Source: Escherichia coli 042 (GTDB lineage: Bacteria; Pseudomonadota; Gammaproteobacteria; Enterobacterales; Enterobacteriaceae). Taken from it: a DNA stretch of 64,000 nucleotides. The notes under the pieces are model-generated. The model saw only the letters and a list, made by a program, of their open reading frames with translations, searched no databases and had not been told where the DNA came from. Within the stretch, counting starts at the first letter, position 1. Each line of letters begins with the position of its first letter. The position numbers and the translations under genes were made by a program. Shown in pieces: positions 5,732-6,072 of this stretch. The stretch lies in assembly GCF_000027125.1 (NCBI RefSeq), contig NC_017626.1; one strand, 5' to 3'.

Positions 5732-5766
5732 GCCTCTGTCACAACGCGTGGCAGAGGCTTTTTATT
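5732..5766 (+). terminator. Rho-independent terminator after the 151-aa gene
   Basis: Inverted repeat gcctctg (5732-5738) / cagaggc (5752-5758) followed by TTTTT at 5759-5763. Confidence 0.5.
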
Positions 5767-5784
5767 TATCAGGAGAAAACAGAT

Positions 5785-6018
5785 ATGCCGGGTTACACAG
5801 AGTATGTCCTGGCTGAAGGATCTTTCTCATACGGGCAGGCGGTTGCTGTCATAACCGCTTACCGCAATGTGTTTATCCAGGATGACCCGGGAATGCATTT
5901 CCGTCGGGTTATCCGCAACGCGGAAGGTCAGCGACGCTGGCGCTGCCGGAATTCTGAACCCGATGCCGGAAAGGTGCTTAATACGCGGCTCGCCAGTGAC
6001 GGTCTTCTCAGACAATAA
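5785..6018 (+). CDS. Hypothetical small protein (77 aa)
   Basis: AGGAG at 5771-5775 nine nt before ATG 5785; bracketed by terminator-like hairpins on both sides; no recognisable motif. Confidence 0.35.
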
Positions 6019-6041
6019 ACGTCATTCATTTCACCCATCAG

Positions 6042-6072
6042 GCCGCGTCTTCTCCGGGAGACGTGGCTTTTT
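6042..6072 (+). terminator. Terminator-like hairpin after the 77-aa ORF
   Basis: gccgcgtc (6042-6049) / gacgtggc (6060-6067) stem with one mismatch, followed by TTTTT at 6068-6072. Confidence 0.4.

Follow-up and report, generated by a model that had tools for sequence, protein, structure and literature searches.

The leading region of conjugative plasmids is the first DNA to enter the recipient, and it carries establishment and anti-defence functions, encoded by genes such as ssb, psiB and ardA/klcA. In the F plasmid, a gene of the DUF905 family lies between ssb and a ParB-like gene, at the position of yfjA, and a homolog, YkfF, is encoded in the K-12 cryptic prophage CP4-6 (UPF0401/DUF905; PDB 2HJJ, NESG target ER397). 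Here, we analysed a stretch of 64,000 nucleotides (nt) of contig NC_017626.1 of Escherichia coli 042 (hereafter the window, i.e., the whole of that stretch), and in particular a 77-amino acid (aa) open reading frame (ORF) at positions 5785-6018 of a CP4-44-type island. An earlier reading of the letters alone (the sequence-only reading) had described this ORF as an insulated monocistronic unit within prophage cargo. We favour another explanation, to which we assign a probability of roughly 0.6: the ORF is a DUF905 gene of a module resembling a plasmid leading region, it stands behind a terminator where it would be silent or transcribed only by read-through, and its ancestral role would be in the establishment of transferred DNA.

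Among the plasmid members of the family, YfjA has been followed as an sfGFP fusion, which appeared early and transiently in transconjugants, needed the single-stranded DNA (ssDNA) promoter Frpo2, and was undetectable in vegetative donors (Couturier et al. 2023, PMC9849209). Transconjugant-specific enrichment of the transcript was confirmed in a 2025 Nucleic Acids Research paper (PMC12672017), and a 2026 paper in the same journal found DUF905 enriched near psiB and psiA in narrow-host-range plasmids (PMC12826799).

The features of the window on which the comparison turns are as follows.

5731-5759, plus strand: stem of hairpin 1, terminator-like, with a U-rich tail to 5769; 12 base pairs (bp), 7 GC, tail TTTTATTTAT
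5771-5775, plus strand: Shine-Dalgarno sequence AGGAG, with a 9-nt spacer to the ATG
5785-6018, plus strand: DUF905 (UPF0401, YkfF/YfjA family) gene, ATG start, 77 aa, with the same translation as in the sequence-only reading
6040-6069, plus strand: stem of hairpin 2, terminator-like, with a U-rich tail to 6079; 13 bp, 7 GC, tail TTTCATTTAT

The start codon at 5785 with its AGGAG and 9-nt spacer, as well as the bracketing by two terminator-like hairpins, had been called in the sequence-only reading, and both were borne out, each hairpin ending in a T-run. Its remark that the product has no recognisable motif did not survive profile searches. More specifically, the product matched Pfam PF06006 (DUF905) with an E value of 9.5e-18 and 64.4 bits over profile positions 2-68 of 70, against a curated gathering cut-off of 22.3 bits, and it matched the nuclear magnetic resonance structure of YkfF (2HJJ) by phmmer (E 1.3e-15) and by family profile (E 2.2e-37). 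We therefore have hardly any doubt that the ORF is a member of the DUF905 family. Its product falls in the class of single-domain proteins of ~70-80 aa with the YkfF fold (alpha-beta-beta-beta-alpha), and the ORF encodes a small soluble protein of that architecture. In an alignment of eight sequences (the window protein, plasmid copies and YkfF), an invariant core comprised F14, Q18, V22, Y26, N28, D33, D34, G36, R40, V42, R44, G48, W52, N56, E58, G62, N66 and G73. After beta3, the window allele and its sub-lineage read CRNSEP, where others have (C/A/Y)WNFEP; the allele carries R and S for consensus W55 and F57, and the profile scores it at only 64 bits, where the F, K-12 and IncF copies reach 112-146 bits. 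The ORF is a true coding gene that is conserved and, as such, already known: a 100%-identical locus is labelled 'DUF905 family protein' in RefSeq (WP_001119729.1), the family is in Pfam, and the structure of a homolog is solved, so that the identification in itself is ordinary.

No paralogous DUF905 copy was found in the window by tblastn, no PADLOC defence model matched the gene, and no DNA-binding or regulator domain was found in the product. A likeness to the TonB C-terminal domain (phmmer E 0.2) disappeared with the family profile and did not turn up in the fold searches. In BFVD, a segment like the DUF905 model occurs in two phage proteins of 217-220 aa that are uncharacterised, H6WYM9 from Hafnia phage Enc34 and A0A286MMT7 from Klebsiella phage KPN U2874 (Foldseek probability 0.96-0.98, template modeling [TM] score 0.59-0.60, E 0.13); it may represent a distant relative of the fold carried by phages. 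On the minus strand, a 62-aa ORF within the DUF905 gene (window 5827-6015, corresponding to L006:826-1014; L numbers denote our compared loci) is annotated as 'hypothetical protein' WP_001291444.1. That annotation stands in a genome whose DUF905 frame is broken, and it is probably an artefact. The family is easily confused with the DUF987 proteins YeeT, YkfH and YpjJ, which are likewise small (~73 aa) and occur in the same CP4-type module; these belong to Pfam PF06174 rather than PF06006, and the published proposal of candidate antirepressors covers YeeT, YkfH and YpjJ as DUF987 proteins, not DUF905 (Ragunathan and Vanderpool, PMC10448788). An assignment of YpjJ to DUF905 was accordingly dropped, as it groups with YeeT and YkfH.

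Three genes of the island—namely, the DUF905 gene and the DUF932 and antirestriction genes downstream of it—have homologs in the F leading region. The DUF905 protein is 44% identical to F YfjA, the DUF932 protein 63% identical to its F counterpart (L017:10439-11257; BLASTP E 3e-131), and the antirestriction protein 28% identical to that of F (BLASTP E 3e-12). Because of these homologs, what had been taken for prophage cargo is, judged by homology, kin to the plasmid establishment gene set and not to phage genes, and the three genes together form a module homologous to conjugative-plasmid leading-region genes. In IncI/K and F plasmids the gene order is ssb-DUF905-ParB-like-psiB-psiA, with antirestriction and methylase genes upstream, and in an IncFIA/FII plasmid the DUF905 gene is followed by psiB-psiA ~2 kb further on, with no ssb or parB in a PLSDB table that is itself incomplete. 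The window gene therefore has neighbours of the kind that marks an enterobacterial mobile-element context, the markers being DUF932 and antirestriction genes on the one hand or ssb, parB and psiB on the other. The F/IncF and IncI proteins resemble the window protein in family and in being small and single-domain (77 aa), and their elements also carry DUF932 and antirestriction homologs. They differ from it in that the plasmid copies sit inside an Frpo2-driven operon and are expressed only on entry into the recipient (PMC9849209). By its order after oriT, the F DUF932 gene (L017:10439-11260) occupies the ygeA/ygeB position downstream of Frpo1, and the region downstream of Frpo1 has been reported to be critical for conjugation (PMC9849209).

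The distribution of the family follows the same lines. In tblastn searches, at least 5000 plasmids matched the DUF905 protein (4459 of the matches listed being predicted conjugative), as against 0 of 50,697 phage genomes, which makes the proposed phage-interaction factor in prophage cargo doubtful. Similar DNA occurs in 4385 of the 5426 complete E. coli genomes (~81%), at a median of 3 and up to 15 places per genome, and the window allele itself was present at ≥99% identity in 1212 genome records. The family as a whole is narrow (230 clusters at 50% identity and E ≤ 0.001 in a hidden Markov model scan of 1.84 billion representative proteins); long multi-stretch matches from that representative search (P0233, P0235, P0244 and P0252) were Ig-repeat proteins and were set aside as spurious. 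In two further sequences, P0257 (229 aa) and P0194 (181 aa), DUF905 is joined with a fragment of SSB or of a DNA polymerase III finger; frameshift fusion or a chimeric gene call, mirroring the ssb-DUF905 adjacency, is the likeliest cause.

Both hairpins have the form of an intrinsic terminator, i.e., a GC-rich stem-loop with an immediate U-tract on the transcribed strand. Hairpin 1 begins 25 nt past the irmA stop codon and directly precedes the DUF905 ribosome-binding site (-21.7 kcal/mol, z = -6.3), and hairpin 2 begins 22 nt past the DUF905 stop codon and ends ~40 nt ahead of the DUF932 start at 6118 (-22.6 kcal/mol, z = -7.1); in neither case did any of 200 shuffles fold as stably. They are by far the strongest terminator-like sites in window 1-12000, where weak sites show no excess (12 versus 10.4 ± 3.1 in shuffles), and no Rfam family matched 4800-7200 at E ≤ 1. 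Like canonical Rho-independent terminators, they have a GC-rich stem of 12-13 bp, a loop of 4-5 nt, 4-5 T right after the stem and a stability of about -22 kcal/mol. They differ from these in two respects: (i) the next ribosome-binding site follows within 10-45 nt, with no detectable promoter; and (ii) the upstream hairpin accompanies DUF905 rather than the gene that it would terminate.

The second point rests on a comparison of window 5731-5759 with the homologous positions in L004-L012 and L016. Counterparts of hairpin 1 occur in four gene contexts (after irmA, agn43, another gene and, in K-12, ykfB), and their sequences vary by context, yet they align as one homologous 12-bp stem, with compensatory double changes at 8 of 12 pairs and pairing in 92.4% of cells. 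This level was reached by 0 of 500 shuffles, and slid controls gave 35-48% pairing. CAGGAG, CAGGGAG or CAGGTG is conserved at the Shine-Dalgarno position in these hairpin-bearing relatives (L004-L012 and K-12 ykfF). Since hairpin 1 is homologous over differing upstream genes and its changes are compensatory, hairpin, U-tract and ribosome-binding site travel with DUF905 as a selected structure; hairpin 1 behaves like a part of the DUF905 unit, not like the upstream gene's own terminator. Hairpin 2 is near-invariant in 13 copies, with three variable stem positions that are all wobble-compatible, and the DUF905-DUF932 spacer has a mean column identity of 92% in these copies, compared with 70-95% for the ORFs. 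We also considered sequestration of the Shine-Dalgarno sequence by a long-range helix (5707-5713/5769-5775), which proved inconsistent in other contexts and was dropped.

The bracketing is not uniform across the family. K-12 ykfF (L016:7305-7544) also lies between hairpins with U-tracts, and these are unlike the window's in sequence; its neighbours differ as well, ykfB preceding it and the antirestriction gene yafX following directly, in place of irmA and DUF932. The plasmid copies have stable GC hairpins alongside, which, unlike those of the window, lack U-tracts. L013-L015 have no hairpin upstream, and DUF905 begins there 5 nt past the preceding ORF in an operon-like arrangement. In L005-L008, the upstream U-tract has lost four T (GGC-TATTTAT), in the same lineage that carries a 2-nt frameshifting insertion in the ORF, so that terminator and ORF, as read from these alignments, have degraded together. 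A third hairpin lies at window 9526-9559, near the right end of the island (ACGCCAGC-(9-nt loop)-GCTGGCGT, then TTTCATTTAT); the terminator scan passed over it owing to its loop of more than 8 nt. In its stem it is similar to the hairpin that follows K-12 ykfF, while the tail is that of hairpin 2, and hairpins of this type seem to punctuate CP4-type islands.

Upstream of DUF905, agn43-yeeR-irmA form a single operon, and irmA and the genes downstream gave no cotranscript by reverse transcription PCR (RT-PCR), while 3' rapid amplification of cDNA ends failed (Moriel et al. 2016, PMC4807369). On account of this lack of cotranscription, hairpin 1 very probably ends the agn43-yeeR-irmA transcript. 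Hairpin 2 is best read as a second terminator, or an attenuator, before DUF932. A consensus scan, which would miss weak or alternative-sigma promoters, found no sigma-70-like promoter in 4500-7500, where shuffles led us to expect 2.3 ± 1.4, and only 18 nt separate the hairpin 1 U-tract from the DUF905 start codon; by that scan, the gene has no promoter of its own. The 'insulated' of the sequence-only reading is thus fair, as both hairpins are real, whereas its 'monocistronic unit' sits poorly with the missing promoter, with the hairpin-less start in L013-L015 and with the plasmid copies, which lie within an ssb-yfjA-yfjB-psiB operon. Because the gene stands behind an intrinsic terminator, lacks a recognisable promoter and is followed by a second hairpin, it would probably be silent, or reached by read-through only, in ordinary growth; that the window copy is largely silent in resident cells is, in our judgement, about an even proposition. 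For K-12 ykfF, Northern blots and RNA-seq detected no mRNA but an antisense RNA of ~500 nt (Maes et al. 2017, PMC5389530), and at the window locus the promoter scan gave no promoter-like site on the minus strand. The pO157 DUF905 transcript in enterohemorrhagic E. coli has been reported to rise 5-fold with ciprofloxacin.

To assess the reading frame, 12 diverged chromosomal copies were sampled at even steps along the similarity ranking and aligned. Six of them were frameshifted or truncated: L005 and L006 have a common 2-nt insertion at codon 5 and a stop at W52, L007 and L008 the same insertion and a 1-nt deletion, and L010 and L012 a 20-nt deletion. In addition, codon 8 of L014 is a stop, and the annotated gene there uses a later start. 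The intact copies are under purifying selection, nonsynonymous differences (pN) being fewer per site than synonymous ones (pS). The pN/pS of the window versus intact island copies was 0.39-0.54, with a bootstrap P(pN ≥ pS) of 0.0005-0.016 for three diverged pairs and, for the closest pair (with L004), of 0.15; between L011 and L013, both likewise from islands, the ratio was 0.31 (bootstrap P 0.009). The ratio was 0.51 for the window versus K-12 ykfF, and 0.31-0.35 for the plasmid copies and for K-12 ykfF versus a plasmid copy, with pN ≥ pS in 0 of 2000 resamples in each case. The plasmid values thus differ from those of the islands in lying at the low end of their range (0.31-0.54). The sequence-only reading had tied its ORF to a frame conserved in related islands, and this holds by half, broken copies being as frequent as unbroken ones and the intact ones constrained. 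As pN stays below pS over deep divergence, yet many copies are broken, the comparison argues for a gene that is real and constrained and often dispensable in chromosomal islands. One copy, L009:734-967, is a mosaic with respect to window 5785-6018: roughly the first third is strongly diverged and the remainder nearly identical, a pattern that hints at recombination or conversion among the island copies.

The locus lies beside yeeA, sbmC and dacD, and its genes run in the order agn43, a hypothetical protein of 840 aa (yeeR-like), irmA, DUF905, DUF932 and the antirestriction gene, followed by yeeS (RadC), yeeT (DUF987), cbeA, cbtA and yeeW. Positions of the neighbours are as follows.

5251-5706, plus strand: irmA, from the annotation (Pfam PF18673, E 2.1e-37)
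6118-6936, plus strand: DUF932 gene, YafZ-like (Pfam PF06067, E 3.9e-52)
7018-7497, plus strand: antirestriction-family gene, YafX/YfjX/KlcA-like (Pfam PF03230, E 8.3e-37)
8052-8273: yeeT, a small neighbour encoding a DUF987 protein (Pfam PF06174)

The yeeR-like ORF (window 2653-5175, between agn43 and irmA) had no Pfam or NCBIfam match; the PADLOC candidate PDC-M09B matched it weakly (E 5.9e-6), as did a tape-measure PHROG (E 1.3e-3). In K-12, yeeR is present in a truncated version only.

Our preferred explanation therefore combines a DUF905 protein that may act early after horizontal transfer, perhaps by binding a host protein or nucleic acid, with a chromosomal copy that would lie, under relaxed selection, between the terminator of the operon agn43-yeeR-irmA and a second conserved terminator-like hairpin. 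The role in establishment is suggested by the fixed place of the family among ssb, psiB, antirestriction and DUF932 genes and by the early, transient expression of YfjA; taken by itself, the proposal that DUF905 is an accessory establishment factor of transferable elements falls a little short of even odds. Several observations weigh against this explanation. No function has been assigned to any DUF905 protein in published papers, so that the sequence-only reading was right to call the product functionally uncharacterised, and deletion of Frpo2, which drives ssb-yfjA-yfjB-psiB, did not reduce the F conjugation frequency (PMC9849209). Blastn of the 13-kb F leading region against the window detected no Frpo-like ssDNA promoter, the sole match being the DUF932 coding region (67.7% identity over ~350 nt); without such an element or any other F leading-region DNA, the expression logic of the plasmids is not simply transferable to the island. 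The consensus nature of the promoter scan leaves room for a weak or alternative-sigma promoter. Counted from the sequences, the net charge is ~+3 for the window protein and ~-3 for the IncI copy, and this lack of conservation speaks against a simple surface for nucleic-acid binding or DNA mimicry common to the homologs. PHROGs family phrog_8779 matched the DUF905 protein (E 1.9e-9), which implies that some virus-labelled sequences carry DUF905. Finally, half of the sampled diverged copies are dead, as those of a functionless relic would be.

A decaying relic, useful on an ancestral transferable element and persisting without function in the island by hitch-hiking and gene conversion, is indeed an alternative that we take seriously, while holding it to be rather unlikely. 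The frameshifts, the 20-nt deletion and the premature stops, the seventh copy with its stop at codon 8, the failure to detect a K-12 ykfF transcript (PMC5389530), the L009 mosaic and the aberrant residues and low profile score of the window allele would all be expected of it, as would window-versus-island pN/pS values above those of the plasmids, though one island pair is as low as they are. Against it stand the significant deficit of nonsynonymous change among intact island copies, the exact allele in its 1212 genome records, and the conservation of the ribosome-binding site and of both hairpins, the upstream one by compensatory changes. An unlikely alternative is that the hairpins are not terminators at all but intercistronic stem-loops that stabilise or process a long polycistronic mRNA, tuning the levels of neighbouring genes. 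A stable hairpin lies just downstream of every DUF905 gene examined and just upstream of most, plasmid copies included, where U-tracts are lacking and the genes are known to be co-transcribed, and the next gene's ribosome-binding site is within 10-45 nt in all cases. The island hairpins, in contrast, run into a T-rich tail with 4-5 T in a row, as intrinsic terminators of the canonical form do, and no RT-PCR transcript joins irmA to the downstream genes (PMC4807369).

The autonomous, insulated single-gene unit of the sequence-only reading, encoding a prophage regulator or phage-interaction factor, appears very improbable to us. It accounts for two strong hairpins around an ORF with a good ribosome-binding site, for the similar flanks of K-12 ykfF and for the report that the upstream operon stops before DUF905 (PMC4807369). 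It does not account for the lack of a sigma-70-like site in 4500-7500 with a mere 18 nt between U-tract and ATG, for copies that start 5 nt past a preceding ORF without any upstream hairpin, or for plasmid copies internal to an ssb-psiB operon; likewise, the empty search of phage genomes, the lack of a PADLOC match and the absence of a DNA-binding or regulator domain speak against a phage-type function. We give the least credence of all to a toxin-like effector in which the DUF905 protein would be a HicA-like or double-stranded RNA-binding domain (dsRBD)-like RNA-binding protein or ribonuclease: for HicA/dsRBD homology, hhalign gave 0.35%, with no detectable profile similarity or significant structural similarity.

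The DUF905 gene itself is of little import, being annotated in thousands of genomes and belonging to a Pfam family with a solved homolog structure; at the same time, few plasmid leading-region genes without a function are as widespread as those of the family, which occurs on at least 5000 plasmids and in ~80% of the complete E. coli genomes. The points to carry forward are solely the covarying 5' hairpin and the kinship with plasmid leading regions. It is conceivable, if improbable, that hairpin, U-tract, ribosome-binding site, DUF905 and second hairpin form a cassette for gated expression, with DUF905 as an establishment or anti-defence factor beside SSB and PsiB. If so, the 5' hairpin would work as a cis-regulatory attenuator, or else as an ssDNA-active element, and the DUF905, DUF932 and antirestriction genes would be off in resident cells and on only around horizontal transfer or SOS. 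Irrespective of this, the flanking hairpins are selected structures, the accessory block of CP4-type 'prophages' (DUF905, DUF932 and antirestriction genes) is tied by homology to the plasmid establishment set rather than to phages, and work on the function of YfjA and YkfF should reckon with chromosomal copies that are terminator-bracketed, promoter-poor and often decayed.
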